Assembly (NCBI RefSeq): GCF_019059575.1
Contig: NW_024881729.1
Location: 480,406 to 544,405 of the forward strand
Length of the DNA stretch: 64,000 nucleotides
Reading direction: 5' to 3'
DNA from: Amphibalanus amphitrite
Taxonomy: Eukaryota
The translations under genes were made by a program, and so were the position numbers. Each line of letters starts with the position of its first letter. Positions within the stretch are counted from its first letter, which is position 1. The notes under the pieces were generated by a model. The model saw only the letters and a program-made list of their open reading frames with translations. It was not told where the DNA came from and made no database searches. This document shows, piece after piece, positions 1 to 57,655 of the stretch.

Positions 1-1542
1 CAACACCTACAATTACGTTATTATGGTATTGACATTGTTACAATTAACCCTGCTCTTTCGAGCGTGGATGCACGCTGAAATTGTCGCATAATTCCATGCA
101 GCTTCCACCCTTCTGCAATACAAAGTTTGAATACAAAGTAGTCTTACAATAGGTTTAGAACTTATGTGCAGATTGTCGATGCTGGTTGACTTGATGATTG
201 GAATTGTGTTTATCTGTTTATCTGTTTTGACTTAAATATATGGCCATGTACTATGGCCTACCTTGGGAAGTGTCTCTGATTTCAACAAAACATTTTTCAT
301 CAGGATACGCTGCAGGGTACATAGTACATACGTAGTGAAAATTTTGAGCATGTATGGGTGCGCATGTGGAGATGTAGACTGCGAATGAGACGGACTACGA
401 CGGTTTTTGAACCAATTAAATCTGATTGACAACATAATGTAGGATTAAAAACTGACTGTCAGAAGAATATTCACAGAATATTCACTTCACCCAGTACAAC
501 GAAAAGGGAAAGTCAGGAAACAGGCAGGGTACATCTCGAAGATCAATCAAATTGCAGGTGCCGATTGGTTATGGATCATTGTAGCTCAATGTACTGCCTT
601 GTGCTGCTTTATTGATTGAAATTGCTTCCAGCTTGTATTGAAAGAAGTCATTATGGAAGAATTAAAAAGGTTCTTGAAAAATTTAAATACTTTGAATTGA
701 TATTTATGCAGAATTATACACCCGTATCATTCTTTACATGTCAATATTTGTATATTATCTAGCATATAAGAAAATAGTGGCCTCAAGTTTCTAGAAAATA
801 TCTGATTTTACTCTCAGAGCCACTGCAGATCCCTAAAAAGTTAGGAGCCGTCTTCATTATTGAATGTATAAACCCAAATAAATTATCACTGCTCAAAAGT
901 GGAAGAAATGACAAATGAAATAAAGTTTTCCTACAGCGTTGCAATCCAGATTTCAAGATAGTGATGGGCGCACTAGAAAGCAAGTAAAAGTACTCCACAA
1001 GGCAAAAGTAAGGAACAAGAATATCCTTATACTGTTTCAGAATTCGGTAACAAACATTTTTTGTGTGTTTTAAATACCCGAACAAATCGATTCCAGAATC
1101 AGTCTTGATAATATTATATGGTTTTTGTATGGTGTTGGTGGTACTTGAATGACCAAAGTCAGTACATGTCCATCACCTTTCGATATTTCCGTGGTGCTCG
1201 TTCCCATTTCATAGCTGCTCACGGTGTTTTCTGCTGACGTCATATGGTGCTGCTCCACTAGCGCCACCATACGGCGTCAGCTGGCGAATTATCCAGTTAA
1301 TACCAGAGCCCACTGGAATGCTCTTCCTGCTCATGTGGTTGAAGCGCGATCCCTGAACGAATTCAAGTCCAGGCTCGACCGCCACTGGTCCCACCTCCTC
1401 TACACCATCCACTCCAATGACTGAGGCAGTGATATCGTCATGGAGCTCGATAAGTCAGAGTCCCACAGGCCTAAGGGCCTTCAAAATTCTCGTACATCGT
1501 AAGTAAGTAAGTAAGACAAGCCCAACCTGAAGGACGACGGTG

Positions 1543-1682
1543 AAAACAGGGCGCCTGGGGCGATTTGATCAAGGTTCGTGAAATTTACACGTGACGTTTG
1601 GTATGTAGAAGGCCCACGGAGGGGGATAAGCTCCAAATGTCACGTGACTAATATGCCCTCCGGCGCCCTGTTTTCACCGGCG
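1543..1682. repeat. A small palindromic element with 17-bp inverted repeats CGGTGAAAACAGGGCGCC.
   Basis: The arms at 1543-1561 and 1663-1681 are exact reverse complements. Confidence 0.5.
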
Positions 1683-4600
1683 CATATTTACGTCTGGACA
1701 ACGAGTTGCGTTGGAGAGGCCGGAAATAGTGGCGATTTCAGGACCGCAAGAATGGACCGTCATTGGAACGATTCTTTTTTAAACCGTGCACTGTCTTCGG
1801 CCGGAATTTAATAGTTACTACAAAATATTTTGTAATTACCTTTCCACCAAGAATGAATGCCATCAGGGCTAAATTTTTAACAGTATTGCATTTTGTCAAG
1901 AAGCATATAGTGCTGTTATATTGCAGTTTTAGCGCGTTTCACGGCGCGGTTGTTACAAAATATGAAGCGAATAAGCGTCAGTGTAATTCATCAACAGTGC
2001 CAGAAGTTAACTTGAGGGAAAGCTATGCTAATTGCTCTTGTCCATCCACTAAAATTTATTAAATATTTTGTTTTGTGTATTCCAAAAGGAGAGGGAACTA
2101 TTTCATTTGTGCCTTCATGTCAGAATTGAAGGTGGATCATTAAATTTTCAACGCAGTTTACAAACAAGCATTTGGTCTTTCTCGTATATAAGCAGTGGCT
2201 AAGAAAAGGTTGATCAATCCTGAAGTTCAGTCATCATACCTCAACTTGGCAGCAAGATCCCCCAAGGACAGAGGATATATTGTAAACCTGTCCTGTTAAT
2301 CAAAACATTTTTGTGCCTGCAAAGGCTTAAGTTATCTGTGGTGTGTTCGGAGTTAGGCTATATGACCGTTTTTGTTGTATGTTTATGTGGAGATTGAATA
2401 TAACTGTGACCCTGTGCTTGTTTGTATACTTACGGTCAAACAGGGAACAGCACATTCACATAACATACTCACCCACCTAGCACCTAACTCATAGCTGTAC
2501 CCTGCAGGATCTGTACTTGTTCACGTCTCGAGCATTAACAAAGCACTAAAGTAGCTTAGTAATCATTTCCCACATTTTCTGAGCATCTAACATGACATAC
2601 AGCAGTGCAGAGCAGCTTCAGAGAAGAAACACTTCAAATGCACAGACTCACACCAGCCACCCAATGAGCCAGTTCCTCAGTTGACTGTTTCCCTGGATGC
2701 AGCTTGGAAATGTGAGCTAACTTTTGGCAAGTTGAAGGTTAGCAGGTAAGATTGAGTTAGGGTGAGTACCTAGGTACCTATAACTGGGTGCTACTGCCAT
2801 GCAGGTCTTGGGTAGGCTGCAAATATGTGTGATGATTGAGGTTAGGTCAGCTGTCAGGTTAGTCAGGTTCAGGTACCTATGCTCATTGCTCAGGTCACAT
2901 TTTTATGGACATTTGGCAAATTAAAAAACTAACAATCTAATCTAAGCATACCCGACTAAACATACACAACTACTGACTATAGGAACTGAGCACCTACCTA
3001 CTTGTGCCTACATCTCATACCATGTCAAAGTAGAGTTCCTTGGTGGAAGATTACCCTCAGTACTTTTTATCCCAGCCCTGTGAAGAAAACTAATACTTCT
3101 AAGCTCTGAGTCACTGCTGGCCATCCACAGGAAGAAACGCTGAGACTGAGAGCTTTGCCATTGTATATTGGACCAATAATGACTATCACGAATGACTATG
3201 AACACATATGATCACATCGTTGCATGGATTGTCACATTGACAATTTTACTACAATCCTTTTTTCAAGAAATACAGTGATGATGATTAACATCAAAATCAA
3301 CATAAAGTGGATTTAGTGATCCAAGCTTTCTCCTCCAGTAGCAATGTAATGATTGCATGTTTCATTTGCCAGACACTGAGTACCTGATGCACATTACAAT
3401 CTGCATAGCATCTAAGCATAGTAAAACTGCCCAAGTCCATTCATTCTAGATTTTACCTTGATAGTTAGCACTAATTTATCTTGCTGTTGTAAGTTATCAT
3501 TCAATATTCATACCAATACATCAATATGCGCTCATCAGTCAACATTTTCTGGCATGATCCTGCTCAGGGTGCTCTTCAGTATTGCTCCAAGTTCTGCAAT
3601 ATTATAGCTTGTTTTTGGACAATAAGCTCTTTTAATTTTACTTTTTCTTGCTGATATATGAGCCCGATCAACTTGCGTTTATCAACCAAAATTTCATAAC
3701 TTGTTCAACTTGATATTGATATTGCTCAGTAGTCAGGACCTCTGTCAGCCTCCTGGATACTTCAGATTGTTTTCAGTCAACATGCTTCTTAAATATGATA
3801 TAATCAATCTTAAAGGATTCAAAACATCCAACAAAACGACGTACAAGAGCAAGAAAACCACCAGATAAACTAAAAAATGGCCTTGGAACAGAGCCAAGAC
3901 GTGCTGCTCCATTTGTTTGTTTACAATGATTGTAGTGCTGATGTATTTTTAGGACTCTGAACGTCGGCTTATAAAAATGAAACGTTTTTACAAAAGTTGT
4001 AAGGCAAGTAATATTTATCTGAAAGAACTAAAATATTCAAAAGCCAAACACTATGACATACATGAATCGGAACGAAAAAGTAACCCAAAAATCCAGCCTA
4101 ATCACCGGCTCCTAAAACTGCAACACAATCAGCACTTTTCCCCGCAACTCGTTGTCCAGACGTAAATATGCTTCACCGGCGTCCAACCTGAACCTAAATA
4201 CCACGGTGACCTAAATACCAAATGTAAATAACAACATGAAGAAACACGCAAAAATGTTTGCGCCAGTCCACGTAGCAGATGCGTAATACATGTAGAGTGA
4301 GTAGAAGGTATCTGCTACTAAATGAAGATATGGAGAAAGAGCGCATCTATTCAGTCCAGCATTATGCGGATAATGCTGGACTCGTCCCCAGCATTATGCG
4401 GTTCAATAGGAGCATCACCAGAAAGGCTCACCGAGCCAACTTCTCTCTTTCGTTTGCGCTTACAGTGCTTAAGTCAGAGATGATCGGTTATATTGGCCAG
4501 AGACTAGAGCGTCCGTTTAGAGAGGCCGATAAGGGCACGCTTAGTTAGCGAAGTTCCTGTGCCGTATGTATGCGGTGTGGTAGGCGGTAGCCACAATCTT

Positions 4601-6061: not shown

Positions 6062-7352
6062 AGTACCATGGGCGTCGAAACCGGGGGGGACGGGGGGGAC
6101 GCGTCCCCCCCAGTCGAGGAATCCGGGGGGGACGTCCCCCGCAAAAATATCCTCATGAATGATTAAAAAAGTGATCAACGAAATTGGTGTATTGTCGTTT
6201 TGGGATGAAATTGCGGATACCTACTCGTATACAAATTGAATCATGCGAATTGCTGACACTGCACTTGCTTGCAGGGCTGCGGAGTAGATTGATTTTGGTA
6301 GCTCTGACTCCGGCTTTTAAAAAATCGCTCGGAGTCCCCACCCCATCTCCGATCACGGCATCCCTCGGCCCGCATCGGAGTGAAAAACATGTGATGTGAT
6401 GCTTTTGTCTCTTTGAACATTTCTTGGCACGTTAAAAGATAACATTACCTACGAGGTGCAGCTCTGGACTGTCCGTCCCAGGTCCTCGATAGGGAGCCAA
6501 AGCTCCAGTTGTAGGGGCGACCATATTCAACAAGGGCTGAAGATCTGTCCCAAAGTCTCAAGCTTGCAAAGACCACACATTTTATGTAGGATATTCGTAA
6601 TAGTCAAGACCTTCAGCTCACTCTCAAACGGCCCTCTTCCCGTTCAAGGCCATCCGACAGCAGAAGGTCTCACCATGTCCTTTGAACGCTTGATGCTTGA
6701 GGGTGAGAGGACCTCGTCCTGGTCTGAGAGAGCCCAAGAGGATGTAATACTCAGTATGGTCCTACATTGGTCTTACCATGACCCGGCCTTCAATCACCAC
6801 AGCCAACAGAATCTCCAGCTTTTATCCGACCCATCCTCGGGGATGACGTTGACTCTGACTTCAGAGTTGAAGTCTGGTACGACTTTGGTGACTCCAACTC
6901 CGTATCCGACCAAAACCGTCGACTACGACCGAAGTCGACTCCGACCCCGCGGTCCTGCAGCTACACTGCACAGAGTTTCAAACTTCTTGGAAATAAGCTG
7001 TACCTATGGTTGACAGAGGACCACACGATTTTTTAGAGGCAGGGCTGCTGGACTTGGTGACCAGATCCTAACTGTCCTGGTATCAAACTTATTACTCGGG
7101 ATGCAAAATTTATGCCTTTTGGGACTGTTTTGCAAAGAGTTTTTGCCAATTTTCGCGGCGCTTCGCGCCGCCAATTCATGCACAGATAGAAAAGAGTGTG
7201 ACTAATAACGCCTCCACGCGAGAACATGAGAACATGTGTATTGTGTATGCGTTATAAGTAGTGCATAGGCCTGAAATTGTACGGTAACTAGCTTTTGGGT
7301 TTTTAGTCAGCCAATCCGTCCCCCCCAGTCAAAAATCCGTGGCGACGCCCCT
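6062..7352. mobile_element. A possible ~1.3 kb MITE-like element with GGCGTCG...GGGGGGGA inverted ends and internal G/C palindromes.
   Basis: 6062 ggcgtcgaaaccgggggggacggggggga matches the reverse complement of 7322-7352 (tcccccccagtcaaaaatccgtggcgacgcc). The hairpins GGGGGGGACGCGTCCCCCCC and GGGGGACGTCCCCC lie at 6095-6140. Confidence 0.25.
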
Positions 7353-7717
7353 GCAAAGTACCTACATCAAATATATTTTGGAAATATATTTTATATGATA
7401 TATTAGAGGCAATTTCATTCGAATTTTTGGATAAGCACCTTACATGCTTAATAATTATGAAGTTTTGTGAAAAACCATCAATTTGGCGTGTAATTATTTA
7501 TGGATTCTACCGTTTAACGTTTGATAATCAATCGTTTATTATTGTATAACCGTTTATTATTGTTTATTGATGTACGATAAGAAAGAAATGTCCAACCGTT
7601 TAATCTGCACATTATAGGTCTTCCAGCAGGCACTCTGCTTCACTTGTATTTAAAGCAGCAAGTTGAACATGTTGCATGCACCGTTTTTTTTTTCTCTCTC
7701 TCTCTCTCTACCCACAG

Positions 7718-7836: not shown

Positions 7837-8595
7837 GTACGATAATCGATTCGATTAATCGGTCGATTCATTCGATTCACTTTACTTATACTGTTACCTA
7901 CAGAAATGTTAGTAGTTGCCGTATAATATCCTTGTTATATAATAATTCTACATCTAGTAATTTTATATTTATGTTTTTGTGATAAGTATATGATATGTTC
8001 ATTAGCAAATAAGCAGTCCGATCAATATAACTTTCGTCCGATCAACATATACCTACTGCCGGTTACGGCATTGTGCCGCAGGTCGCTCGCTGTTCACGGC
8101 AGTCCTCCTGTCTCTCCGTCCTCCGAGAATGGCTGTCCTCAGAGGAGAGGACGCCGCCGCCGAGGACTCTCGGCAGAGCGAGAGGAGGCCGAGTGTGGTT
8201 TAAGAGTGGCCTGCACTCTGCTGGGGCCGCTCGGACACCACCTGCACGCGCACTTACGGTACGATGTGGTTGGCAAAGCACATTTGTGATTCAATTAGGC
8301 TAGCTATAAACATTATGAGGCATTGTGTAATGTTCACAATATAATTCATGGAAACATCTCATCGCTATATATGATGCATGCACCTAAATTTTATAAATAA
8401 AACACTTTTCGGCTATTTTATCATTATTGTAAGAGACGTTTGATATTCCAGATTATCAAGTAACCTTTGTAACCGCGCCGACTCTACACATTTTAAACGT
8501 ATTTAATGCGGCAAGCGCAGTAACAGTTTTCATTTCGAGGTAGGTACATTTTAAACGGGAACCCAGTAACGTATAGGCACATTTATAAACTAAAT

Positions 8596-9793
8596 TAACC
8601 CGCGCCCTGATGGGGGGCCATTTTGGCCCCCCCTGTGGTTTTTCTTAAATAGCGAGAAAACGGCGGCGCGCAGCGCCGCCAAATTTTTGGTACCTTACCG
8701 GGCATCAATTTGACACCTTCACACAAAATTTCAAGTCACAGGTCACCTCAGGTCAGGAGTTATTGAGGTCAAACTGAGGTCATGTTCGAGCAAAAATGAG
8801 CAAAAAACATGACATCTTGAAACGCTCACCAATTCTACAGTTAGCAAGCAATTTTAAAGTTCTTTATGTGGTTGTGTAGAGAAAAGACGGCGCTACAAAA
8901 CTGCTATCTCGGATTTCCGAAATTTGTGGATTTTGACCCCCAAAAATAAAAAAAATGATTTTTTTAGAAAAACTCAAAAAAATTCCAAAAAAATTCGAAT
9001 TTCGAAAAAACCGGAATATATGTGATAGTCCCTGCGCTCTTCGATATACATACCAAATTTTAGATCGATACCTCTTTTTTTGGCCAAGTTATAGCGAAAA
9101 AACTGTTACAAATTGATGACGTCAAATTTTTGAACTCAATTTTTTTTGCAATTCTAGACCTCGTAGCGCAAAACGGAGACCACCATTGAACTCCCCGTGA
9201 CGAGCTGCATCGAATCGATACCCATTTTATGCAAAAATATCAACTTTGAAATTTGACCTAATTTGACCTGACCTTGACCTGACCTTGACCTGACCTTGAC
9301 CAAAACGTGACCTAAGCTGGCCCTAAAGTCTGTCTGACCCACATAATCGCATTTGTCATGCAAAATGGACCATAAAACATGTATCACACGACACTTTCAT
9401 ATTGTGACCCCCCCCCCCCCCCCCCCCCCCAGTGACCTGACCTCTGTGACCTGACCTGGTATCAGTGACCTCAAATAGCAAAATATGTGTTTGAAGAACA
9501 TTTCTCCATCGATGATTTTCAATGAAATGCATTTTACTCGATTTTACAACGCATTTCTTGAAATGCCTGTAAACGGTGAAAATTCGACCTTTGACCTGAC
9601 CTGTGACGTCATCGGTTTGACCGAGGTCAATGAAATTGGGTCACAAGGAAGTTCCCCGTTGGGGCTATCCAACACCGTTTACCGCTTGTCGCTATGTTGT
9701 GTGGTTCTCGAGATCTGAGGGGGGGGGGCCAAAATGCCCCCCCCCCCCATCAGACCGCGTTGCTCGGCAGACCCCATCTGGGCGCGGGTTAAA
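8596..9793 (+). mobile_element. A ~1.2 kb non-autonomous DNA transposon (MITE-like), copy 1. TTAA flanks and CCCGCGCCC...GGGGGGCC TIRs suggest piggyBac-like mobilisation.
   Basis: The left end is TTAA|CCCGCGCCCTGATGGGGGGCCATTTTGGCCCCCCC and the right end is GGGGGGGGCCAAAATGCCCCCCCCCATCAGACC...GGGCGCGGG|TTAA. The interior has a (TGACC)n-like tract and a C22 homopolymer. It is ~90% identical to the reverse complement of 27070-28250. Confidence 0.7.
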
Positions 9794-11387: not shown

Positions 11388-14311
11388 ATGGTGCGCCTTC
11401 TGCAGCCATCGCCGCTGGCCGTTCTTCCACTGTTGCTGTCGCTGCTGACGTTAAGCCCAGGTTACGAGGTGACGGTGTTCGGTCCAGCCACCCTGTCTGA
11501 TCTGCTGCTACACCACGGCTCCGGCTCAGCCGCCGCGCTGACGGTGGCCTCGGCCCTGTCCCCATCGCGGTACATGTCCGTGGACAGGTCAGCCGGTCCA
11601 GACTGGGTCATACAGTGGCAGGATGACGAGGAGATCTCAGAGGATGGCGGAGCTGGAGAGAGTACAGCGCGGGGACAGGACGACCTGGTCAGCGGCTACC
11701 GTCTCCCGGAGCGTGGGTGGCCCTGGCCGGCAGGGGATGACCTAAGGCAGGTCAACAGTTTAGGATACCCAAACACACCACCGAAAGACGGCTTGTCGGC
11801 TCACCGTGTGGATAACCTCACATCATACATCACCTCGTTGACTGCACGTGACGCAGCCATCGTTGATACCGGCACGAAACATGACACGAACGGGACCGGC
11901 TTTAAGGAGGCTGTTCGAGACACGCTCGCCACGATTTTCGAGGAGATGCTGCGCCGTCCGAACGTCACAGAGGTCAGCACCGAGGCCACAGAGGTCACCG
12001 AAGTCACCAGTGTGGCGGAGACGGGGCTGGAGGCCCCTTACGAGGCCGGCTCGGAACCATTCCTGGAGGATCAGCTGGCCACCGCCTCCACCATTTTAGG
12101 GCCGTCAGACGACGGATCCCCACTGGGTCCGTGCAGTACCTGTGCCGACAGCCTCCAGTGGACCCCAATGCTCGGCTCCAGTCCTGGTCCGGGTGGTTCG
12201 GCGAAAGGTGACTTGGGCACCAGCGACTCTCAGTGGCTGGTCATCACAAAGACGGCCGACACGCACCCCATCTACGGCGACCCTGATCTGACGGCCGAAT
12301 CCAGTCAGGACGCGCTGGAATCAGTGAATGGACTCGAGCTCGGCGACTACGACTCGGCGTTTAGCTCCGACTCCGGGTGGTCGGCCGGAGACAACGAGTA
12401 CAGGTACGAAGACCAGACCGCAGCCAGCTCCATACCGAGGGCCGGCATAGTATCCCGGATGTCCCGCATCTGGAACGGCATGAGGAGGAGGATCCGCAGA
12501 CTGTTCCCCTCCTGGGAGTACCTCACGACATGGAGGACGCCCTGGTGGTACGAGCGACACGTCAGGCGAAACAGGAACAGACCCCATCGACGTCGCAAGA
12601 GACCAAGACCGTCATATGGAGCACCCAGGCCAAGGCCTTCGTACGGAGCTCCGAAACCCAAGCGAAAGCCTCAACCTTCATATGGACCACCAAAGTCTAA
12701 GCGAAGGCCCAGACCTTCGTATGGGCCTCCCAAGCCCAAACGAAAGCCAAGGCCATCATACGGGCCACCAAAGGCAAAACCAAAACCATCGTATGGACCA
12801 CCAAAAGCAAAACCGAAACCATCGCATGGGTCACCGAAGTCGAAGCCAAACTCTTCGTATGGACCTCCAAAGTCTAAGCCAAATGCATCGTATGGGCCAC
12901 CCAAGTCTAAACCAAACGCATCGTATGGGCCACCTAAATCCAAACCAAATGCTTCGTACGGACCACCGAAGTCAAAACCCAAGACATCTTATGGACCACC
13001 AAAGAGTAAACCCAAAGCATCATACGGACCACCGAAGTCTACGTCGAGCGCGTCTAACGGTGCTCCGAATTCCAAGCCAAGCTCTTCATACAACACTCCA
13101 AGCAGACCCAGTCAAACATATGGAGCTCCCAGGAAACGACCAAGCCAGATGTACGGTCCTCCCTACAACTCTCAGTTGCCGACTCTACGCGGGTCGCCGA
13201 ACCGTCGCGATGGGACACGGCCCTCCGAGCCCATAGACGTCCAGCCGTTTCCGACTACCTACACACCGCAGGTCTCCGGCTTCGGCGCCGTGAGCGAGGC
13301 AGCTCTAGACGCACACACCCTCGACCCGGTCACAGAAGTGGACTACGGCACGGCACCGGCCGAAACTGATACGCTGGACGAGTTTGACCATCCTCGCCGA
13401 CCCAATAGACCTCACAGACCTCACAGACCTCACGGACCTCACGGGCCTCACAGGCCACACAGGCCGGCCGAGCACCGGTTCCCGTCGTTCGACTGGCTCA
13501 GCGCTCCGTTCCGCGCCGCGTACGACTGGCAGATGGGTCTGCTAGGAGGCTTCCTCCGGCGCATGTCGACATTCCCGTCACTCAACTGGGGAGTTCCCTC
13601 CATTCGATTCCCACTTCTGCCAAGTGTTCTGAGGCGCGATGAGCGCTGGGATAGGACCAGAGCTGATGAGAGAGGTCAGGTGCTGCAATACACGGACTGG
13701 GGTGAGCCGGACTCGACGATCCTCCAGGACCGAGCCGGTCTGCCCGCCGGTACCGGCAGGTCGTCGGTGGTGGACGGCCTTCTCTCGGCGCTCGTTGTTC
13801 TTCCGTTCGCGCTGTTCGCGGCGGAGCGTGCCGTGGCCCTTGGAGAGGTGCTTGGTAACACCACCGCAAACCTCTGGGTGGTGGACGCGCTGACCCAGGA
13901 GGGAGGAGGTCAGGTGGCGGGCGCAGGATCCAGACTGCTCCGCGAGCTAGAGATCCTGACGGAACGCTGTACAGACGGCCTGACTGATGACGCTGAAGGA
14001 GCCAGCAGACAGCAGCAAGAACATGCCACCAACATCACCACCAAATATCTTGACCAAAGCGAAGCAAACGCTTCTGAAGACGCTGACCACCTTGCTGAAG
14101 GAAGTGGTGAAGAGGTTGCTGACGAGATTAGCCACCAGACCTGTCCCTCCGGCTCCAGCACCGTGGGTCACCTGTTGGGCACCTACCGCTCGCTGTCCGG
14201 CTCCGTCGCCGCCCTGCCCGATGACCTGACCTGCCGCCCGCTGGCGCTGTGTCACGAGCTGAGGGCCAGGGTCGACAGCCCAGCCGATATCGCCGCCGCC
14301 ATCGCCGTACT
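11388..14311 (+). CDS. Gene A exon 1: a secreted repetitive protein. It has a signal peptide, ~18 copies of (K/R)PxxSYGPPK(S/A)K undecapeptide repeats, an HRPHRPHGPHGPHRPHRP tract, and a C-terminal C-x5-C motif.
   Basis: An uninterrupted 975-codon ORF starts MVRLLQPSPLAVLPLLLSLLTLSPG. It ends at a perfect GTGAGT donor (14312-14317) overlapping the in-frame TGA; the exon ends in phase 2. Confidence 0.6.
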
Positions 14312-14652
14312 GTGAGTACCCCCGGAGATTGTTAACTAACCGTATAATGGGGCACTTCAATTTAAAATTAGCGTTTCAAAGAATTATTGCTAAATGTTAT
14401 TATGTAACTTTATGTGATAGGGCATTCATATATGTACTGCAAGCATTTATAAATTTTAACAATGAGGTATTTAAGTTTTAATAATAAACAAATTTTGTGT
14501 CGTTATCAATGTTATCATTTTCGGTGTTAGCCTGCCCTATACAATACTGGGAACAAAAGATATTTGTTTGGAAAGCTTGTTTACATATGCTTTAGCGGTT
14601 TTCCATCGCTAAATTACGTAGACCCTGTTCAGCTTATTTTACCGTTTTACAG

Positions 14653-17854: not shown

Positions 17855-18020
17855 CTCCAGGAACTAACGTCTCTTTCCTGGTAGACTGTTCCGCACTACA
17901 CGCGTGATTGCGGCGCAGCATGATCCCTATATCGCGCGGACGCCGAACAATCTAAAAAACAAATAGCTGTTTAGAGCGAAAAGTCCAATAATTTATGCAA
18001 TTGATCGCTTGGCTGTTTCT
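17855..18020. repeat. Arm 1 of a ~170 bp, ~97% identical inverted repeat; arm 2 is at 20775-20945.
   Basis: gttccgcactacacgcgtgattgcggcgcagcatgatccctatatcgcgcggacgccgaacaatctaaaaaacaaatagctgtttagagcgaaaagtccaataa is the reverse complement of 20801-20930. Confidence 0.8.
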
Positions 18021-18273
18021 GGGAATACCAAATGACTCGTATGCATGTAAATAGCGTTTATTCAAGATATCGGACATGGCGCTGACTATTACGTAGCCGT
18101 TCGATACTCGGTCTCGAATAGGTACACCAAATAATTAAAGTATTTTCTCACGAGATAATTTTGGATGAAGATAAGAATATTTCAATTGGCTGACAAAAAA
18201 ATGTAATCTCTCGCTGATGGCATTGTTTAATGTTTGACCCCGTTCCCGTACTGACCAGAGACCCCTTTCACAG

Positions 18274-18397
18274 TGTCGGGACGTCCCTGATCCCCACGGC
18301 GGAGGTCTCTCTGTGGGAGAAGCTGGCCGCCGTCCTGGAGGCCAGGACGGGAGGACGCTGTGAGGCGACGTTCTCCTGCGTTGATAAACCGGGATGA
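18274..18397 (+). CDS. Gene B terminal exon: (S)VGTSLIPTAEVSLWEKLAAVLEARTGGRCEATFSCVDKPG followed by the stop.
   Basis: The acceptor is ctttcacag|T and it continues phase 2 from 17608. It is homologous to the terminal exons of genes A and C (second Cys pair RCEATFSC versus DCVATFDRC versus SCWSRAAESC). Confidence 0.45.
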
Positions 18398-18539
18398 GCC
18401 AGCGCGGTGTGCTGGCTTTTCGCTGCTGAGCTTTAGATAGGATATTAGTCGGAGGAAAGAGTACAACTTTAATTTATTACTCATGCCAAATGCATGGTGA
18501 GCGAGCATCGATCGTGCGTTAATTTGCAAATTTATCAGA

Positions 18540-19385
18540 CATTTATTACGAGCGAGCGAGCGCAGCGAGCGAAGTGAGTCTTTTCAATATAACGGAAAAA
18601 TCTCAGTATGAGCGGCCCGGCCCGGCCCGGCCCGGCCTGTAACGCTTTTGAGAGGCTTATATCTCAGCAACCGCTGGACCGATTGGCCTGCGGTCTTTTT
18701 TGTTGGGTAGCCCCATCCCTTCTACCCCGTAATTGACTACTTTTGATACATCTCAGTGACCGTCGTGGCACGTGCCACGTGAAAAGTCAAGGGTGTTCAA
18801 GCTGTTTTGCAAAATTAGTGATTTTGAGAGGCTCATATCTCAGCAGCCGCTTGGGCGATTGACTTGCGGTAATTTTTGTAGGGTAGCAGCATCCCTTCTA
18901 CCCAAAATAGGATAGTCTCGATGCATGTGGGTCACCCCCAGTGCACGTGCAAAATACAACAATAAGAGGTGCCAAATTTGTTCCCATTTCAGTAACTCGG
19001 TAATTACTGGGGCGATTTCGCTGAAACTTGGCATACAGGTAGGCACCCACCAGGCAATGCATTCCCATGTGTTGCGATTAGGGTGGTACTGCACGTGCGC
19101 ACGTGCAGGGGGCGTTTCCAGATCTCGAGAACGGCTGGGCCGATTGCGCTCAAATTTGGTACACGGTTGGGGACCAGTTAGTAGGGTGCCGTGCAAAAGT
19201 CATTTTGGACCCCGTTTGCACGTGCGCACGTGCAGAATGCCGCTTCCAGATCTCAGGAACGGCTGGGCCGATTGCGTTCAAATTTGGCACACCGCTAGCG
19301 ACCAGTTAGAAGGGTGCTTTGCGCAAGCCCGTTGGAAGCACCCTCTCGCCCTTCCGCACGTGCAGGGCTCACTATCTCGCTCGCT
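18540..19385. repeat. Satellite-like tandem array with units of ~130-180 bp and 4-5 diverged copies. It is bounded by inverted CGAGCGAGCG / CGCTCGCTCG termini.
   Basis: Recurring blocks include cacgtgcgcacgtgcag...ccagatctc(g/a)g(a/g)aacggctgggccgattgcg(c/t)tcaaatttgg(t/c)aca and gagaggct(t/c)atatctcagca(a/g)ccgct. Confidence 0.7.
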
Positions 19386-20774
19386 CGTTCTTCGCCCAAA
19401 AGGCGTTTTACTGGTTATATTGTTATTATTCCATAGCTATGTTCGTGTATTTTTGCGTGTGGGTGTTTCGTTCCGTGATGTTTAGAGATGCTGCATGCAA
19501 GTTGGTTGACCATTGGTCTGTGCTCGTTTGTCGTTTTGCTGCGGTGCATGCGGGTATATAGTGAAATGACCAAATGTTTTGCGTATGAATGGGGCGACAT
19601 TCATCGATTAATAGTCAACACCGTTTCTTACAGTGAGATTAAATTTGATCTGAAAAAAAAAATTGTTATTTTAAAACTTTTCTCTTTCAGAATTAAATGC
19701 AAGTAGGCATGCCCACGTATAAGATCCCACCTAAAAATAGATTGCCTGTATTTAGAGGCTCGCCCTCGTCCTCGGGACACGGCTGAGCCGCGGTCACCCA
19801 CTGATCGGTAACGTTTCTTTGTGATGTCGCTCTTGGCTTTATCATCCAGGCACGAAGCCAGTATTTTGCTTAGGGAGGGGCCACAGGTCGCGGCCTAGTG
19901 TCGTACCCCTCCAAAAAAGGAAAGCTTCTCGGATTCGGCCCACTATTTTTGGATGTGTGGTGCAGCTGTTTTTATTTATTATCTTTTATTTAATTTTGTA
20001 TCATTTTTTGCCTACAAGGGGAGGGAGCCATGGCCCCCGTGCCCCCCTTGCTACGTCCCTGTTATCATCGTTCGGCTCTGAAATGGTTTTGTTTGTTTTC
20101 TTTTTGTTTTGTTGGGTTAGGCCCTTTCGGTCCAATGGGACCATTTCAGAGCCGGGAGGATGATAGGATAAAGGGGGAGACATTGGTCTGGGCAGGCACC
20201 CTAGTGAGTCGCCGGGGCTGAGCCCGTCCAGAGGACAGGCCACCCAGCCCCAAGGCACTCACTGCACCCGGCTACGGGGTGCGCTCCCTCGGGAGCAGCG
20301 GTGCCGCTCCAAGGGAGCAGCCCGCATGAGATAAAGTTGCCTGTCCAGCCCGGAGAGGGGTTGCGGCGTGGAGGAGAAGGATTTCAGTATCCTGAGGATA
20401 AAAGCACGGAACGGTGACTGAAATGGTCACTTCTTTAGGCAATATACGTAAGTGATCCTAAAGCATGGGTCTCCTGTCTCCATGTCACGGCTGTCTGAGA
20501 AAGGGTGGCAACCAATGCCACCTACCAGACTACCACCTCCAATGGTGGCTGGTGAATACAACCAAGGCAAACGCGTCCAGCTCTGAACTGAGTAGGTATC
20601 TATAGCGCCATCTGCTGCACAAAGGTTGGAGAACGTCCAGGTCCAACGGCCAGCGCCCTCTGCTCTGAGAACGAAGAATGGTGCTTCAGACACTATGCAT
20701 AGGTGCATACTCATATATGGCCCGGACCACACAGGTGACGCTCAGCAGTACCCAACAGCCGAGAGTCACATGGT

Positions 20775-20945
20775 ATGCCCAGAAACAGCCAAGCGATCAA
20801 TTGCATAAGTTATTGGACTTTTCGCTCTAAACAGCTATTTGTTTTGTAGATTGTTCGGCATCCGTGCGATATAGGGATCATGCTGCGCCGCAATCACGCG
20901 TGTAGTGCGGAACAGTCTACCAGGAAAGAGACGTCAGTTCCTGTG
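20775..20945. repeat. Arm 2 of the inverted repeat. The two arms enclose ~2.75 kb, including gene B's terminal exon and the 18540-19385 tandem-repeat element. They are possibly the TIRs of a ~3.1 kb element.
   Basis: It is the reverse complement of 17855-18020. Confidence 0.8.
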
Positions 20946-21790: not shown

Positions 21791-23896
21791 AAACATCCTT
21801 TGAAAAAGTTGTTAAAACGGTTAGGATTGTTTGCATATCAGGCCTTGCAACGTTTTCTGGATCGTAAAAAAATTCAGTGATGTAGCATCTCAATTTTTTT
21901 GCTCTTCATATACATATAGGTATAGCTTAAAAGGTACGTACTCGTAGAGCGTTTGCAAATATCTTAATACTGAACCTACGTTGCGAAATAATCATTATCG
22001 GGTATCGTGCATAATTCACTTGACGGTTTGAAATGATACGATACACAAGATGCCTACACAATAGGTACACATGACAGTTTCATGCTTGGGTTCCTCTGAT
22101 CAGCCACTCGTTGCCTTTGTGACCTCTTTTCCAGTCAGCCCGATAATATGTTGATTGTTGGGTCAATCCCCGTCTGTCTCCATACGATATGCATGACAGA
22201 CGAACTGGGTCTGTCTGAGCGCGTCCCATTCGTCATTGAAATGCACTGGAACAGTGAAACGGTGCACACTCACCACCACGGGAGAACAGCGTAACCACGA
22301 CCGACAGCACAGCCAGAATTTAGAACAGATGGCATCCGCCAGAGATGCACTACCTACTAATGCCATGAATGCACATCTGAACATTTCCACAGCAGATGGT
22401 CGACGGAACACGACATCCGATCATTTCTGATGCACGCGGTTCCGTGTTACATCCAGCTAGCACGGTTATGTTTATGCACGACCCAACCATCACGTCATAC
22501 GGTCTCTGTGCCAGTTGCCACGACCGGTGGCACTTCCGTCACTGCTCATATATTTCGGCTTCTTCTCACCGTACCTTGATTTCGGTACCCCGGCCGCGCC
22601 CTGCGCTCCTCTATCGTGTCCCGTGGCGCCCACGATATGCCGCTCCTGACACCCGTCCCGTTACCTTTCCGCTCGGGACCGGCGGCCGTCATGCTCCGCC
22701 GTCCGCCGTGAAGACGGGACTGCTGCGCATCGGCGGCGTATGTGGCGCACTGGCGGCGCTACCGTGACCGAGCCGCAGTCGACACCGCGCCGAAGGGAGT
22801 GGTTTATGGCTAGTTAGGCGTAATTAATTAGGGATCATGTGCGGAGGCGGTGAGCTTCTGAGATCAAACGGTACGTGGTCGTCTGGGCCGGTGGAAGCTC
22901 CGACGCTGCATTCAATCCGTATAGGCAGTCAGGACACTTCGAATAATAGTATTTCCTCGAGGTTAGGGTATGCCATTTACAACAGCCGATGGCTTATATG
23001 TAGCTGCCATATAGCATGTATCAATTGGTATCGAGTACCCGTTTATAAGTGGGGTCCATGGGGAAAGGGCTCGTTACCTAACGCAGTGTGCGCTGTGCAG
23101 CGTGTACCGTACAACGCTTGGTTCAAAAATGCAGCTATTAATGTGCGAAAAGGCATACGAACTTTTGTCACCTCATTATGCATTCTGCAGTCCCTTCTCG
23201 CGAATCCAGCACAGCGGTAACCCACACCGTGACGTCGTGACGGCCGTGACGCGGGCCATGACCCATCCGTGACGCTCCGGGAGCCGGGGGCGGGGGCACG
23301 GAGCGTCACGGCGCTCGGCGGCTGCTCCGGTCTGCTCCGGATGGTGCTTGGCTCAGAGTGCTGGTAGAGGCAGCGCTGAATGGCGCCGAATCGTCGGAGA
23401 GCTCGGTCGCCGAGTGTGGTTGGTGGCAGCTGAGCGAACTGACGGAGATAGCGTGAAGCGGTTGACAACGGGCTGGGGAGAGAGTTGAATAGTGACTGTG
23501 CTCAGTGGCGACCGATTCAGCGAATCTAGAAGACATATCACCGAGCATTGACCTCTCGACCGGTAGATCAGTGCACGAGAATTCGGCTTACCTGAGCCGA
23601 TCGAGGACGGTTTAAGCTGCAGCCGGTTTCTGGGTTTGTTTGTGTGTTTCGGTGCGCGGGAGAGTCAGTGATCTGTTGTGGAAGGTGGTCCATAATTCGT
23701 CACCTGTGTCTGTGCTGTAGGTAGACGGGGACCGGTTGGCGGTCGGACATTGATCACTGGATGACTGGGTCGCGGTCGGATGCGGTCGGACGGCGGTCAG
23801 ACCCGATTAGGTAGATCACCGTGCGGTCGTGCCTGCCGCTGCACTGGTCGGTAGAGCGGCGCTCGGCGTCACACCGCGTCAGTGCCAGTGAACATC

Positions 23897-24768
23897 ATGT
23901 CGATGTCGGAGCTGACTCGTGTGCTGCTGATGGCAGCAGTGCTGGGAGGACTGCTGGCTGAGGCCGGGACGGTCAGTGCTCAAAGTGGTGACGTTCAACG
24001 GCTGGTGCGGCTCAGAAGAGCTCCACTCCGAATCAGCAGAATCAGCAAATTCCGACCGGAGGACCCAACTTCTACCAGATCTAGCCCGGTAACAACATCT
24101 AGCCCTTCTAAGCCTGGTTCGAGCAGCCTGCATTCTCCCGGAGAGGTTCAGGTTGTGACCAGTCTCCTTCGCTCCCACACGGCCTGGCCAGTCTGGAGGC
24201 CGCCTGTCTCTGTCACCACCGGCCAACCGCCGAGCACTGTTGAGCCAGGCGTGGAGGGTCAGGTAGAGAGGACCACAATGGTTTCAGAGGTCACCGTACC
24301 CACGGAGGCGAGCGCCGGGGTAAATTACCAAACGAAGCACCCGGAGCACTGCCTTCAGACGGAGCACTGGTCAGAGCACTCGGAGCACTCGGAGCTTCAC
24401 GTTCAGACGGAGCACCCGGAGCATCAGACAGAGCGACCAGAAACTCCGATAGACCGCCGACCAGGAGTCGACCTGGAGCTCCAGTCGGAGTCCGATCCTC
24501 CAAATGAACACTCAGAGCTCCAGGAGTGGCCGGAACACCACCCAGAGCCCCATCTTCAGACGGAGCCCCCGGAGATCCATCCTCAGACAGAGCCATGGCC
24601 AGAGCCCGGTCCAAATCCCGCCGGCAGCGGGGGAGGCCGTGAGACGGCCCCTGGACAGCTCCCCACTGAACCACCCAGCTCCGAGCTGACGGAGCGACTG
24701 GAGGACATCAGCGCTCGCATCCAGCTGGTCCGACAGAAGCTGTCACAGAGGCTGGACTCGCAAATGAG
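23897..24768 (+). CDS. Gene C exon 1: a secreted His/Glu/Pro-rich protein. It has the signal peptide MSMSELTRVLLMAAVLGGLLAEAGTVSAQ and HPEH/TEHxE repeats.
   Basis: The ORF ends at the donor AG|GTAGGT at 24769, a phase-2 end. Confidence 0.55.
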
Positions 24769-25002
24769 GTAGGTAGGCTGAACCTGAGCTCGCCTGCTTA
24801 AGACTGTCCGTAGAACATGCTTAGTTAAGTCATGACGTCTTGTAGCGGGTGATTTGTCTAAAAAAATAGCTTTCACTATAACTCCTGCCAGCAGAATAGT
24901 CGCTTTTTACAAGGGCCTTGCCCAATATAGCTCGATGAACTTCACAAGACGATGATCGGCGATCGGCGCTCCTTCGCTGACAGACTGAAACCTGACCCAC
25001 AG

Positions 25003-25320
25003 AATAACTGGCGCCGGTAACTCGCTGGTCACGCTAGCGGTGCTCGCGCTGGGAGTCCTCCTTTTCGACGCCATCAACGACGCTCTGGCGGGCGGCGGGG
25101 GCGGCCGGTCCGCCGGCGGTCTCTGGGGCCGTCTGCTGGGTCCCGAGCTGCTGCGATGGGCGACACCGCCGGACCGCTGGGACAGACTCCTGGCGGAGTT
25201 GGAAGATGAGGAAGCGTCGGCAGGCCGGGAGGTGCTGCTCCCCGGGCCGGGAATCATCGGCGAGTACATCAACAGTCTGCTGGAGATCGGCCTCAACATG
25301 ATCACAGTGTGGATGCATGG
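25003..25320 (+). CDS. Gene C exon 2: (R)ITGAGNSLVTLAVLALGVLLFDAINDALAGGGGGRSAGG...EYINSLLEIGLNMITVWMH(G).
   Basis: The acceptor is acccacag|A, and the exon is open in the required phase-2 frame. The donor is GTGAGT at 25321. Confidence 0.45.
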
Positions 25321-25579
25321 GTGAGTGGGATGGGTGAGGGCAGCGAGAGACGAGGGGCTTACCGAGAGGAGCACGGTTTCGGTAGTTGCATCTTGTGCCG
25401 GGGCGGGGAAGGGGAGGGTCAAGGGAGCCCATAGAGAGGTGATTTAATTTTAACCATAGCATGCCAGCAATTATCTTGAAACAGCTCGATTTGTGTATAT
25501 TTCTAGCAGCGAGAAGCGGTACCGTATTTGTCCACCTAGCGGTCATTCGATGAACCACTAGTTACCGTTCTGTCCGCAG

Positions 25580-25799
25580 GGAGGCGGGCTCGCAGTGCGG
25601 TCGCCGTCTGCTGTGTGAGCTGAATCAGAAGGCCCGCTCGCAGTCAGCACTGCACTCAGCGCTGACGTATACGGGCGGCCTGCTGCTGTCACTGCTGCTG
25701 CCTGAGGCGTCTCCCTCCGACCATCTGCTGGCCATGAGGCAGGGACGGCGCGGAGCCGACTGTGTGGCCACCTTCGACCGGTGTCAGGTCACACTGTGA
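25580..25799 (+). CDS. Gene C terminal exon: (G)EAGSQCGRRLLCELNQKARSQSALHSALTYTGGLLLSLLLPEASPSDHLLAMRQGRRGADCVATFDRCQVTL followed by the stop.
   Basis: The acceptor is tgtccgcag|G. It contains the complete four-Cys C-terminal module shared with genes A and B. Confidence 0.55.
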
Positions 25800-27069: not shown

Positions 27070-28250
27070 TTAACCCGCGCCCCGTAGGGCTACCGGCGGA
27101 CCCTACCACCCGTAGGGGGGGGGGGGGGGCCGTTTCGGCCCCCCCCTAAGATCTCGGAAAGTTACCGGCCGATTTTCAAAATTCAAACGGCGTTTGATAG
27201 CCCTACCCGGGAACTACCTTGTGACCAAATTTCATTGACCTAGGTCAAACCGATGACGTCACAGGTCAGGTCAAAGGTCAGATTTTCACCGTTCACAGGC
27301 AATTCAAGAAATGTGCTGTGAAATCGAGTAAATTGGTAATTTGTTGAAAACCATCGATGGTATATTGTTCGTCAAACACATACTTTGCTATCTGAGGTCA
27401 CTGATACCAGGTCAGGTCACAGCGAGGTCAGGTCACCGGGGGTCACAATATGAATGTGTCGTGTGATACATGTTTTATGGTCCATTTTACATGATAAATG
27501 CGATTATGTGGGTTAGGCAGCCTTTGGGGCCAGCCTAGGTCACGTTTTGGTGAAGGTCAGGTCAAGGTCAGGTCAAATTAGGTCAAATTTCAAAGTTGAT
27601 ATTTTTGCATAAAATGGGTATCCATTCGATGCAGCTCGTCACGGGGAGTCTAATGGTGGTCTTTGTTTTGCTCTACGATTTCTAGAATTGCCAAAAATTG
27701 AGTTTGAAAATTTGACGTCATCATTTTTGAACAGTTTTTTCGCTATAACTTGGCCAAAAAACGAGGTATCGATCTGAAATTTGGTATGTAGATAGAAGAC
27801 GGTAGGTACTATCACATATATTCCGGTTTTTCCGAAACTCAAAAAACTTTTTGGATTTTTTGGCTAATATATCCAAAAAAATGCTTTTTTGATTTTTGGG
27901 GATCAAAACTCAAAAATTTCAAAAATCCGAGATAGCAGTTTTGTAGCCCTGTCAATTCTACACCTTTTATGTCTTGATCATTTTTCTGTATCTTCAAAGC
28001 TGTAGGCCTGACAGGTCTTCTCGCGAAGGTCTTTTTTCGGTCGAAAATGACAGAACATGACGTCACTCTGACGTCATTTGTGGCCAACCTACCACAGCCT
28101 CTGGAAAAATTTTTGGTCACAATGTGTAAAATTGATGCCCGGAGGGGTCCTGAAAGTTTAGTGGCGATATCTCCAGCCGTTTAGGAGATATCGACCGAAA
28201 AGGACAGGGGGGCCGTTTCGGCCCCCCCCCCCTACGGGGCGCGGGTTAAA
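27070..28250 (-). mobile_element. MITE-like element, copy 2, in inverted orientation relative to copy 1. It lies immediately 3' of MVP.
   Basis: The ends are TTAA|CCCGCGCCCCGTAGGG...GGGGGGGGGGGGCCGTTTCGGCCCCCCCC and GGGGGGCCGTTTCGGCCCCCCCCCCTACGGGGCGCGGG|TTAA. The internal sequence is the reverse complement of copy 1, for example ggtatcgatctgaaatttggtatgtag. Confidence 0.7.
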
Positions 28251-42989: not shown

Positions 42990-43462
42990 GGACCCTCCCA
43001 CCTTAACATTAGTTTTGAGTTGAGATAGCCAAGTTTGCGGCCAGGCTCAGAAACCACCATTTATCCTGGTCGCAACCCCCGCAGCTTTATGGTGTTCAAG
43101 AAATTTCTTCCCTTTACTTGCAGGGTGGGACCAGCGTGGTCCCTATCTCTTAACCATTACGGGAATCTGATGACGTCATCAGGCTTTCGAACGTCCGTTA
43201 AATGTTTGACTAAAACGTTTTGTAGCACGCGGTGGTATATGCTGCTTTGCGCGCAACAAATGCCGCACTTTCAAATAAAGTCGCTAGGAACAGCGGAGAT
43301 CCCAAAAAGTAAACAAAAGTATAAGTCTAATATCTTGAAAACCGGTGAATATTTTTCGATGAAATTTGGTAGATATGCGTTTTTGCTCTTTCTGAACCGA
43401 GCGACATCACTTTCATGCCAATTCATTAACTTTTTTGAAGGTGGGAGGGTCCCTTTAAGTAA
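42990..43462. mobile_element. A ~470 bp MITE with TIRs AGGGACCCTCCCACC, flanked by TTAA on both sides.
   Basis: The left junction is ccaTTAA|AGGGACCCTCCCACC and the right junction is GGTGGGAGGGTCCCT|TTAAgtaattg. It lies adjacent to the left end of the large transposon. Confidence 0.6.
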
Positions 43463-55653: not shown

Positions 55654-56072
55654 AAGGCCGCCCCACACTGGACCTCGCATGCGGGTTGCGAGTTTGCGGG
55701 TTTTGAGTTTGAGGGCATAATACTAATTCATAGAGTGATTAGACCGTTCCCTTATGGTAACTTCATGAATGCAATGAAGCCGGTACACCTTCAGAAAAAT
55801 TTCGCAATACCAGTGCAACCAACCAAAATTCGACTTCAACGAAAACCCCGCAAACCTCGCAGAACTCGCAGACCTCGCAGCGGGGAAAATCTAAAGCTGA
55901 CTCAAAATCAACTTTTGGAATGCGATGCAAGTTGGCTCGCATGCTAAAAACATGCAGACTCGCTTGTTAGATGGTATTGTGGGTCACTCAGCTTAGATTG
56001 TATTATTTGATTTGAAAGAAACCCGAAAAACCAAAAACTCGCAACCCGCATGCGAGGTCCAGTGTGGGGCGG
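55654..56072. mobile_element. A ~420 bp MITE with 40-bp perfect TIRs (GGCCGCCCCACACTGGACCTCGCATGCGGGTTGCGAGTTT). It is inserted at the left end of MITE copy 3.
   Basis: The inverted repeats at 55655-55694 and 56033-56072 are perfect. A TTAA sits immediately 5' (gatTTAAggccgcc). Confidence 0.65.
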
Positions 56073-57655
56073 CCTTCGCCCCAGTGGGGGGGGGGGGCAT
56101 ATGTTACCACCCTGTCGCGTTTTTGGCGTGTGAATAAAAAACCGCGGCGCGTAGCGCCGCGCCGCTTGGGGTAGCTTTTAGTACATCAATTTTGGACAAT
56201 GTGTGAAATTTTTGACCCCAGGTCATGTCAGGTCAGGTCACCAGGTCAAGTTAACTGACCAAGCCTAAAACAAAGTTTGCAATCATGTCCAGCTTGCAGT
56301 GTTTGTCAGAAAGGTTTTAAACTTGGTGTAGAGGTGGCAAAAGATGAAAATTTTGGGAACCAGACTCGAACCAGACCCGGCTGGACATTTCTGGAACCAG
56401 TCGGACCCGGTCTTAGTTGGAATCGGAACCAGTTGGACCCGTTCCCCAAAAGTCAATTAATACAAACTACTTGTGGGTATCATTAGTTGCATCATGTAAA
56501 ACAGCCTTTTCCCACTGGGAATACTCGTGAGCTACTGTGTGCAAAGAAACATTCACTTCATTCACTTCATATTTTGCAATAATGTGCAGTGTGCAAGATG
56601 TATAGTTAATGTTAGGACCCGGTTGGACCCGTCAGAAAATTTCCAGGAACCGGTCTGGACCCATATGGGTCCAGACTGGTTCTTTGGACCGGGTCCTCGG
56701 GTCCACATTTTGCCACCTCTAACTTGGTGGATTGCATGATGTTATGAGCGCCTACAATTTGTATATCTCCGATTTTTTATATCTGTGACCTAAGGCCAGG
56801 TCAGTGGCGTGACTTTTCCATTACAAGTCATTGGAGAAAAATGAAAATGCCTCTAGATCCGTGTGTACGCAAAGGAACAGTCCAAATATTTCAGAATCAC
56901 AATGATTTGGACCACCCGTGATGACCAAGGTGTCATTTTTGCTGATAGCCTCTAGAAAGGTCATCCGAGGTCATTTGAGGCTACAAACAGATTTTTGCCA
57001 ATAACTCGCGATTGGAAAGAGATAGAACGCTGGAGATGGTCTCATTGTGTTTGTCTTGTTGAGACGCATCGATTGATATGCAACATGACCTTTTCCGGCC
57101 AGGTCATGACCTTGACCTGAGGTCAAATTTTCAAGTTGACCTTTCAAGGTCAAATTATAGTTCATTCGACGCGTCTCGGCGAGAGGAACACGATTCTGGC
57201 AATAAAAATGTCGTGGCTTTTTGTAATCGAAAGTTATTGTCGAAAAACACTTTTCGTAAAAACAGCTATTTTTGGAGTTTTTGCCCTCTGGAGGCTAAAC
57301 CGTTGACCTGAGGTCAATTTTGATAATGACTTTATCAAAAGAAGAGTTCAAAAGCTATCGATTGCTTTTCCATGCGTTTTTCTAGCTACCATTGATCCTG
57401 AGAAAACGGCATATTTTCTGAAAAATATAATGACCATTGGCAGATTTTGACCTTTGATGACCTCTGGTGACCCCAATATTGCTCTAAGATAAAAAATGAC
57501 TGAAATACTTTCAAACGTACACATTGAGAGCTATCGACTGCTTTTTACCGCGTCTTTCTAGCCCTCTTAGTTTTTGAGTTAGAGGTGGGTGGTAACATAT
57601 GCCCCCCCCTCACTAGGGCGAAGTTGGCTGAGACCGCCACTGGGGCGCGGGTTAA
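56073..57655 (+). mobile_element. MITE-like element, copy 3, related to copies 1 and 2. Its 5' end is truncated or interrupted, and another MITE is nested inside it.
   Basis: The right end is ...GGTGGTAACATATGCCCCCCCCTCACTAGGGCGAAG...CCACTGGGGCGCGGG|TTAA. The left end is TTCGCCCCAGTGGGGGGGGGGGGCATATGTTACCACC. The interior contains AGGTCA/TGACCT-rich tracts like copies 1 and 2. Confidence 0.55.
56322..56733. mobile_element. A nested ~410 bp MITE with ACTTGGTGTAGAGGTGGCAAAAGATG TIRs, inside MITE copy 3.
   Basis: The inverted repeats are at 56318-56345 and 56712-56737. The interior is itself palindromic (ggaccc/gggtcc arms). A TTTAAA sits at the left junction. Confidence 0.55.

Follow-up and report, generated by a model that had tools for sequence, protein, structure and literature searches.

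Three insertions in nuclear DNA of the barnacle Amphibalanus amphitrite very probably belong to an old, immobile-looking, nonautonomous lineage of the piggyBac superfamily. They lie in a stretch of 64,000 nucleotides (NCBI RefSeq assembly GCF_019059575.1, contig NW_024881729.1, positions 480,406 to 544,405 of the forward strand), which we call the window and number from its first letter. We assign the lineage to this superfamily on several independent features: TTAA flanks, CCC/GGG tips, and asymmetrically placed subterminal repeats. The earlier reading of the window (the original prediction) had described the insertions as a piggyBac-type family of MITEs (miniature inverted-repeat transposable elements) in three copies, two of which could mediate inversion of the interval between them. 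A nonautonomous, TTAA-targeting family was borne out by our analysis (TTAA at 5 out of 5 tips, CCC/GGG ends, and subterminal repeats at 4 versus 31 to 33 bp), and the part given to it in inversion was not.

The evidence begins at the termini. The 9-mer CCCGCGCCC has exactly five matches in the window, and all five are element tips, in a search that was not preselected on TTAA. TTAA stands directly before each of them. With the TTAA frequency of the window, 0.0034 per position, such a result would be expected by chance with a probability of ~5e-13. Exact matches to TTAACCCGCGCCC also number five (0.05 expected) and lie at 8595 and 27070 on the plus strand and at 9780, 28237, and 57643 on the minus strand. 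The inverted repeat CCCGCGCCC...GGGCGCGGG at the tips is perfect over 9 bp, giving the elements CCC...GGG ends. The claim that every intact element end abuts TTAA holds for all five tips, none of which had been preselected. Judging from these flanks, TTAA would be the target site duplication.

Each end combines the 9-bp terminal repeat with a subterminal block that consists of a G run, a palindrome, and a C run. The spacer between block and tip is 4 bp at one end of the element; at the other end, it measures 31, 32, and 33 bp in copies 1, 2, and 3, respectively (coordinates are given in Table 1). The block forms a strong DNA hairpin on folding. Its core is variable. Read inward from the tip, the right-end block of copy 2 is G11-CCGAAACGG-C6, and the block of copy 3 is a G run plus CATATG that lacks the GGCC...GGCC core. 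We compared 18 ends, drawn from the window and the environmental contigs (see below), with 12 different cores in all; 63 out of 83 core positions were self-complementary, compared to 24 ± 4 positions (maximum of 37) in a control with shuffled cores. Palindromy is maintained while the core sequence changes. The second hairpin of copy 1 (8662 to 8680) belongs to a left-end module of ~100 bp that is common to the elements found in metagenomes. We also observed an independent long-form end with a 32-bp spacer in contig L037, which derives from another sample (ENA ERZ25070917).

Table 1. Coordinates of the three elements, their ends, TTAA flanks, internal features, and associated MITEs in the window
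Feature	Position in window	Strand	Details
TTAA flank, copy 1 left	8595..8598	.	Target site copy
Copy 1, nonautonomous piggyBac-type element	8599..9788	+	1,190 bp; short-spacer end on left
Copy 1 left end	8599..8633	+	CCCGCGCCC 8599-8607, 4-bp spacer, palindromic G6-CCATTTTGG-C7 8612-8633
Copy 1 second subterminal hairpin	8662..8680	+	GGCGGCGC-GCA-GCGCCGCC; conserved
AGGTCA array near copy 1 left end	8740..8782	+	Four hexamers
Internal TGACCT (AGGTCA) array, copy 1	9254..9313	-	Microsatellite-like; kept in copy 2 (27537-27585)
C23 homopolymer, copy 1	9408..9430	+	C5 in copy 2; C14 in L003
Copy 1 right end	9719..9788	-	G10-CCAAAATG-C12 9719-9748, 31-bp spacer 9749-9779, terminal repeat 9780-9788
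TTAA flank, copy 1 right	9789..9792	.	
TTAA flank, copy 2 left	27070..27073	.	
Copy 2, element inverted relative to copy 1	27074..28245	-	1,172 bp
Copy 2 long-spacer end	27074..27146	+	Terminal repeat 27074-27082, 32-bp spacer, G15-CCGTTTCGG-C8 27115-27146
Copy 2 short-spacer end	28207..28245	-	G6-CCGTTTCGG-C11 28207-28232, 4-bp spacer, terminal repeat 28237-28245
TTAA flank, copy 2 right	28246..28249	.	
Separate MITE	55656..56074	.	419 bp; 51-bp inverted ends GGCCGCCCCACACTGGACC...; TTAA left (55652-55655), only TT right
Copy 3, divergent relative	56077..57651	+ (same orientation as copy 1)	1,174-bp core; long-spacer end right
Nested hAT-like MITE in copy 3	56329..56721	.	393 bp; ends TAGAGGTGGCAAAA..., 8-bp target site duplication ACTTGGTG
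TTAA flank, copy 3 right	57652..57655	.	

Copies 1 and 2 are homologous from end to end in opposite orientations, with 77% identity overall and 83% identity over the central 876 bp; the longest uninterrupted identity between them is 46 bp. Copy 3 has ~50% identity to either, with homology in islands. Because this similarity is so low and patchy, we regard copy 3 as a distant subfamily of the same lineage and not as a third copy of the family. The proposed three-copy family is therefore upheld for copies 1 and 2, which are homologous over their full length, and revised for copy 3. The core lengths of the three are nevertheless similar (1,190, 1,172, and 1,174 bp), that of copy 3 having been computed after removal of the nested hAT-like MITE, and their flanks are mutually unrelated. 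The left tip of copy 3 starts with CGCCCCAGTGG..., the first four bases (CCCG) being gone, and with this tip lost, the copy should no longer be mobilizable. The truncated tip adjoins the separate 419-bp MITE, and the junction looks like a shared TTAA minus 6 bp (AACCCG).

All three cores exceed the strict size limit for MITEs (roughly <800 bp). As a label, "MITE" suits the nonautonomous, TTAA-flanked character of the elements and does not suit their length of 1.17 to 1.19 kb; given these core lengths, "nonautonomous piggyBac-type element" is safer. The longest stop-to-stop frames in the three copies are 94, 113, and 107 amino acids, and a Pfam search with these frames gave no significant match, in agreement with the earlier statement that the elements carry no open reading frame (ORF). 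Scans of viral contigs for an autonomous partner gave no match, and neither Rfam nor a tRNA scan had any match in the window.

Next to the window itself, we scanned metagenome contigs of the Joint Genome Institute (JGI) with the pattern TTAACCCGCGCCCNNNNGGGGGG. Seventeen contigs matched, of which L006 and L014 look like chance matches. About 15 environmental eukaryotic contigs have the full end architecture, and the next ~100 bp of sequence (...TTTTTCTGCGATAGCGGGAAAACGGCGGCGCGCAGCGCCGCC) is ~77% identical to copy 1. The interior of copy 3 (56751 to 57512) also has relatives in this set: alignments of up to 780 bp show ~67% identity to sequences in L012, L016, L009, and L010. At least two of the matching contigs encode proteins recognizable with Pfam (a NuA4/MEAF6 subunit in L018 and a ricin-type lectin in L008). 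When the proteins of the metagenome contigs (MEAF6-like and other ORFs) were searched, only JGI entries matched, with none in A. amphitrite at ≥90% identity. In L020, a 182-bp TTAA-flanked mini-element is joined to a second element via a single TTAA; the tip of the mini-element that had not been selected by the scan is also preceded by TTAA. The termini do recur elsewhere, as the original prediction implied, with related ends in ~15 environmental contigs and in L037. Three copies per 64 kb, unrelated flanks, and further related ends outside the window characterize a dispersed multicopy family. Separately, we considered a bacterial origin of the GGCGGCGCGCAGCGCCGCC hairpin; it had 12 matches in GC-rich bacterial genomes, none of them with a transposon tip, and we attribute these matches to chance.

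Both available A. amphitrite assemblies contain copies 1 and 2, which have diverged from each other by ~17 to 23%. In the second assembly (GCA_009805615.1, contig VIIS01000581.1; loci L002 and L003), colinearity with window positions 4209 to 40363 extends across both copies. Copy 2 is identical between the assemblies (L002 13992 to 15171), and copy 1 is 98.9% identical (L003 8098 to 9284), with two single-nucleotide polymorphisms and otherwise differences in homopolymer length. Copy 2 lies downstream of the gene for major vault protein (MVP), 457 bp past its stop codon. The related barnacle contigs L001/L004, L022, and L023 carry MVP at 87 to 90% nucleotide identity, and L022, L023, and L001 all lack copy 2 in the orthologous interval. 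The anchors around the insertion are 437 bp apart in L022 versus 440 bp in the window once 1,176 bp (copy 2 and one TTAA) have been removed. Insertion of copy 2 postdates the split from the closest available relatives. For copy 1, the upstream sequence of outgroup contig L004 was too diverged to place the site, with only two exons aligning. A search for the copy 3 region in the second assembly, by way of the DUF7869 ORF described below, found no annotated A. amphitrite product and no single-exon gene near 48 to 64 kb. A search for a haplotig or RefSeq copy of the locus with the exact products P0001, P0125, the 975-amino-acid window ORF, and P0130 returned no record.

Several observations weigh against a piggyBac-type origin or narrow the support for it. 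The excised window was aligned to L001, L022, and L023, and no base-precise empty site for copy 2 was obtained; since ~60 bp around the insertion are too diverged to align, no TTAA can be assigned to the site in these relatives. The perfect terminal repeat of 9 bp is shorter than the usual 12 to 19 bp. Base 5 of the tip (CCCGC) departs from the consensus C[C/A/T][C/A/T][T/G/A][T/A/G][T/G/A] (PMC5381638), and the tip is without the CC[C/T]T motif (PMC2872659). The scan pattern used on the metagenome contigs contained TTAA, and the TTAA flanks there are therefore not independent evidence. A tblastn search with a piggyBac transposase query (an unverified Trichoplusia ni piggyBac protein sequence) gave no match in the window or in any of the retrieved loci. 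In the same sequences, we found no transposase gene sharing the family termini; no genome-wide search was made.

We nevertheless favor a nonautonomous piggyBac-type lineage. In such a lineage, a piggyBac family transposase encoded elsewhere would recognize the tips and bind the palindromic subterminal repeats. It would then synapse the two unlike ends, excise the element, and reinsert it at a TTAA, with duplication of the TTAA.

The interior of the elements has a character of its own. The hexamer AGGTCA/TGACCT occurs at a density of 12 to 17 per kb in all three copies versus 0.92 per kb in the remainder of the window (~15-fold), which confirms the hexamer cores noted earlier, and the long C/G homopolymers noted with them are equally real (e.g., the C23 run in copy 1). 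Palindromes of the form TGACGTCA were seen in copies 1 and 2. The hexamer arrays stand at matching positions in these two copies, their length varying in microsatellite fashion, and copy 1, copy 2, and L037 all have the motif TGACCTGACCTGTGACGTCA at a distance of ~190 bp from the long-spacer tip. The AGGTCA/TGACCT and TGACGTCA arrays are probably either extra subterminal protein-binding repeats or slippage-prone microsatellites, and a host regulatory role is possible.

A more specific proposal is that the copies have been co-opted as gene-proximal regulatory modules that recruit host transcription factors near MVP and its neighbors. We take AGGTCA to be a putative nuclear receptor half-site and TGACGTCA to be a putative site similar to a cAMP response element, and these tentative identities temper the proposal. 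The enrichment of the hexamer extends to the distant copy 3, copies 1 and 2 have their arrays in corresponding places, TGACCTGACCTGTGACGTCA appears again in L037, and the insertions tend to sit close to genes (copy 2 behind MVP, and the metagenome ends past the stop codon end of ORFs). These patterns agree with co-option. However, a role in transposition would equally well account for arrays that are conserved across subfamilies, and the microsatellite-like variation in array length speaks against co-option. Moreover, the MVP loci of the relatives lack copy 2, which is therefore not needed there. Taken together, we consider co-option improbable.

We also weighed other cut-and-paste superfamilies, in which a shorter duplication would be hidden within TTAA: Tc1/mariner (TA duplication, tip ACCCGCG...) or PIF/Harbinger (TTA/TAA). 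TTAA contains TA and overlaps both TTA and TAA, and the missing base-precise empty site at copy 2 leaves some room for such a reading. With a TA duplication, however, the outer T and A would need to have been conserved by chance at 5 out of 5 tips and at the unselected tip in L020. A 3-bp duplication of TTA or TAA is impossible here as a direct repeat on both sides. Furthermore, palindromic repeats placed asymmetrically (4 versus 31 to 33 bp) are the piggyBac layout, and a pair of elements sharing one TTAA, as in L020, is a prediction of TTAA-targeted insertion beside an existing element. Membership in another superfamily thus seems very unlikely.

The idea that copies 1 and 2 act as an inverted recombination substrate, flipping the ~17-kb interval and generating structural polymorphism, fared no better. 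The pair does bracket genes as proposed: the copies are homologous, lie in opposite orientations, and are ~17.3 kb apart. However, colinearity of the second A. amphitrite assembly with the window continues through copy 1, copy 2, and all of the sequence between them, so that the structural polymorphism anticipated for 9.8 to 27 kb did not appear in GCA_009805615.1. On a related 35-kb outgroup contig, a search with TTAACCCGCGCCC found no match and hence no family terminus, and the mucin-like and MVP genes there are oriented relative to each other as they are in the window. Sequences with 77 to 83% identity and short perfect runs are poor substrates for homologous recombination, and with a longest identical run of 46 bp, copies 1 and 2 fall in this class. 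We therefore hold inversion by these copies to be highly improbable.

Finally, chance similarity, an assembly artifact, or a local segmental duplication without any mobile family has next to no probability: homopolymer lengths do differ between the assemblies, but five exact 13-mers stand against 0.05 expected, copies 1 and 2 are found in two independent assemblies, the three copies have mutually unrelated flanks, and related ends occur in ~15 unrelated environmental contigs and L037.

Blocks very similar to those of the TTAA elements were also observed in hAT-type elements of the same region. One of these is a 1.29-kb MITE at window positions 6068 to 7354, with tips CATGGGCGTCG / CAGGGGCGTCG and an 8-bp duplication, CAAAGTAC. 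It has G7-ACGCGT-C7 and G7-ACGT-C5 palindromes just inside the tip, as the TTAA elements do. In the other A. amphitrite assembly, the site is cleanly empty (L003 ~6857), which makes this MITE an insertion polymorphism. The reciprocal case is a 1.87-kb hAT-type element at L002 3510 to 5382 (window ~36845; tip CAGGGGCGTAGGCA, 8-bp duplication TCCCGGTC), present in GCA_009805615.1 and represented by a clean empty site in the window. It has a G10...C8 block near its tip. Rather than serving solely as the transposase site of this family, the block of G run, palindrome, and C run could be a cruciform-forming GC hairpin module that recurs inside the tips of unrelated barnacle MITE superfamilies, a suggestion that we regard as a long shot. 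If it were true, the module would have been exchanged between elements or convergently selected for promoting mobilization or survival, and AGGTCA arrays traveling with it would spread nuclear receptor-type sites near genes across a group of eukaryotes represented in the environmental data.

The two A. amphitrite assemblies differ in other ways as well. Left of position 4209, the window has no detectable similarity to L003 1 to 5046, and this mismatch over window positions 1 to 4208 reflects either haplotypes of different structure or a large insertion that only one assembly has. L002 20005 to 21276 (window ~22328) is a 1.27-kb insertion with a long (GGGTAG)n array that is absent from the window. 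The interval from 22327 to 27033 is only ~91% identical between assemblies, compared to 100% in the neighboring copy 2. A 3.1-kb element at 17858 to 20943, with 181-bp inverted arms of 96% identity, is present in both.

In general, exons in the window are GC rich and spacers richer in AT, and small inverted-repeat elements are numerous. The MVP gene corresponds to an 805-amino-acid ORF at 28706 to 31123 on the minus strand, which is 100% identical to XP_043230410 (MVP-like isoform X6 of A. amphitrite). This identity marks the window as nuclear DNA from this acorn barnacle. At 11388 to 14315, we observed a 975-amino-acid secreted mucin-like protein with about ten 11-amino-acid PSYGPPKSKPx repeats, and these repeats resemble tyrosine- and proline-rich marine adhesive proteins. 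An element of 2.49 kb at 1682 to 4171 has inverted ends of 29 bp, GCATATTTACGTCTGGACAACGAGTTGCG, and its 9-bp duplication, TTCACCGGC, is perfect; the length of the duplication suggests a nonautonomous Mutator-like element. A 475-bp inverted-repeat element at 42984 to 43458 (TTAAAGGGACCCTCCCACC...GGTGGGAGGGTCCCTTTAA), with a similar end, TTAAAGGGACATTCCCACC, at ~4500 in L037, may represent another family flanked by TTAA, one whose tip is atypical. Lastly, a 1,053-amino-acid frame on the minus strand at 44560 to 47721 has twelve 78-bp (26-amino-acid) tandem repeats at its N terminus and a C-terminal DUF7869. It matched no A. amphitrite protein. Homologues (54 to 62% identity) were seen only in ENA contigs, in two of which they lie amid transposon genes. 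The frame is probably either a gene of transposase origin or a transposon that has escaped annotation.

The barnacle family is previously undescribed and belongs to the well-known, TTAA-type nonautonomous kind. A full-text literature search found no paper pairing the tip sequence with piggyBac. The family is real but ordinary and opens no new question. It gives barnacle repeat libraries a defined piggyBac-type nonautonomous family, and its members add ~4 kb of repeats around MVP and its neighbors without detectable rearrangement.

Among known systems, piggyBac (IFP2) of T. ni, the type element of the superfamily, is the natural reference. Its tip is CCCTAGAAAGATA. Asymmetric palindromic subterminal repeats occur in this element and in a subset, though not the whole, of the piggyBac-like elements. 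T. ni piggyBac has a 13-bp terminal inverted repeat and 19-bp subterminal repeats located 3 bp from the 5' tip and 31 bp from the 3' tip (PMC5381638). A dimer of the cysteine-rich domain of the transposase binds the internal repeat, which is a palindrome, and transposition in cells requires asymmetric ends (PMC7351741). The barnacle elements share with it the TTAA on both flanks, the CCC...GGG tips, and the asymmetric placement of a palindromic subterminal repeat (3/31 bp in T. ni; 4 and 31 to 33 bp in the barnacle). Besides the host, several features differ. The barnacle elements have no transposase gene, their perfect terminal repeat is 9 instead of 13 bp, and their tip sequence, CCCGCGCCC, is unrelated. 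In place of the 19-bp TGCGT-type palindrome, they have a G run, a short core, and a C run. That a 3/31-type asymmetry and a palindromic site are kept despite unrelated end sequences supports the importance of asymmetric ends in the piggyBac mechanism.

The CMITEs of Acropora corals are also nonautonomous and TTAA flanked with CCC... tips, and they too have internal or subterminal modules common to several families (Wang et al. 2010, PMC2872659). In both systems, elements occur as neighbors: in tandem arrays in the corals and, here, as the L020 pair and as copy 3 with the 419-bp MITE. The coral study showed an allele in which the TTAA site is empty, as well as an autonomous relative of the CMITEs, AmiPB1 (PMC2872659). 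CMITEs differ in being ~100 bp long, with CCCTTT-type tips and a 75-bp conserved core, compared to ~1.2 kb, CCCGCG tips, and GC homopolymer palindromes in the barnacle.

The human MER85 and MER75 are noncoding or internally deleted piggyBac-derived elements that are TTAA flanked and present as old, fixed copies. They are far shorter than the barnacle elements, have other tips, and are of recognizable PGBD3/PGBD4-type origin. The barnacle family is set apart by the combination of a length of ~1.2 kb, the CCCGCG tip, the GC homopolymer palindrome, and the dense AGGTCA arrays.

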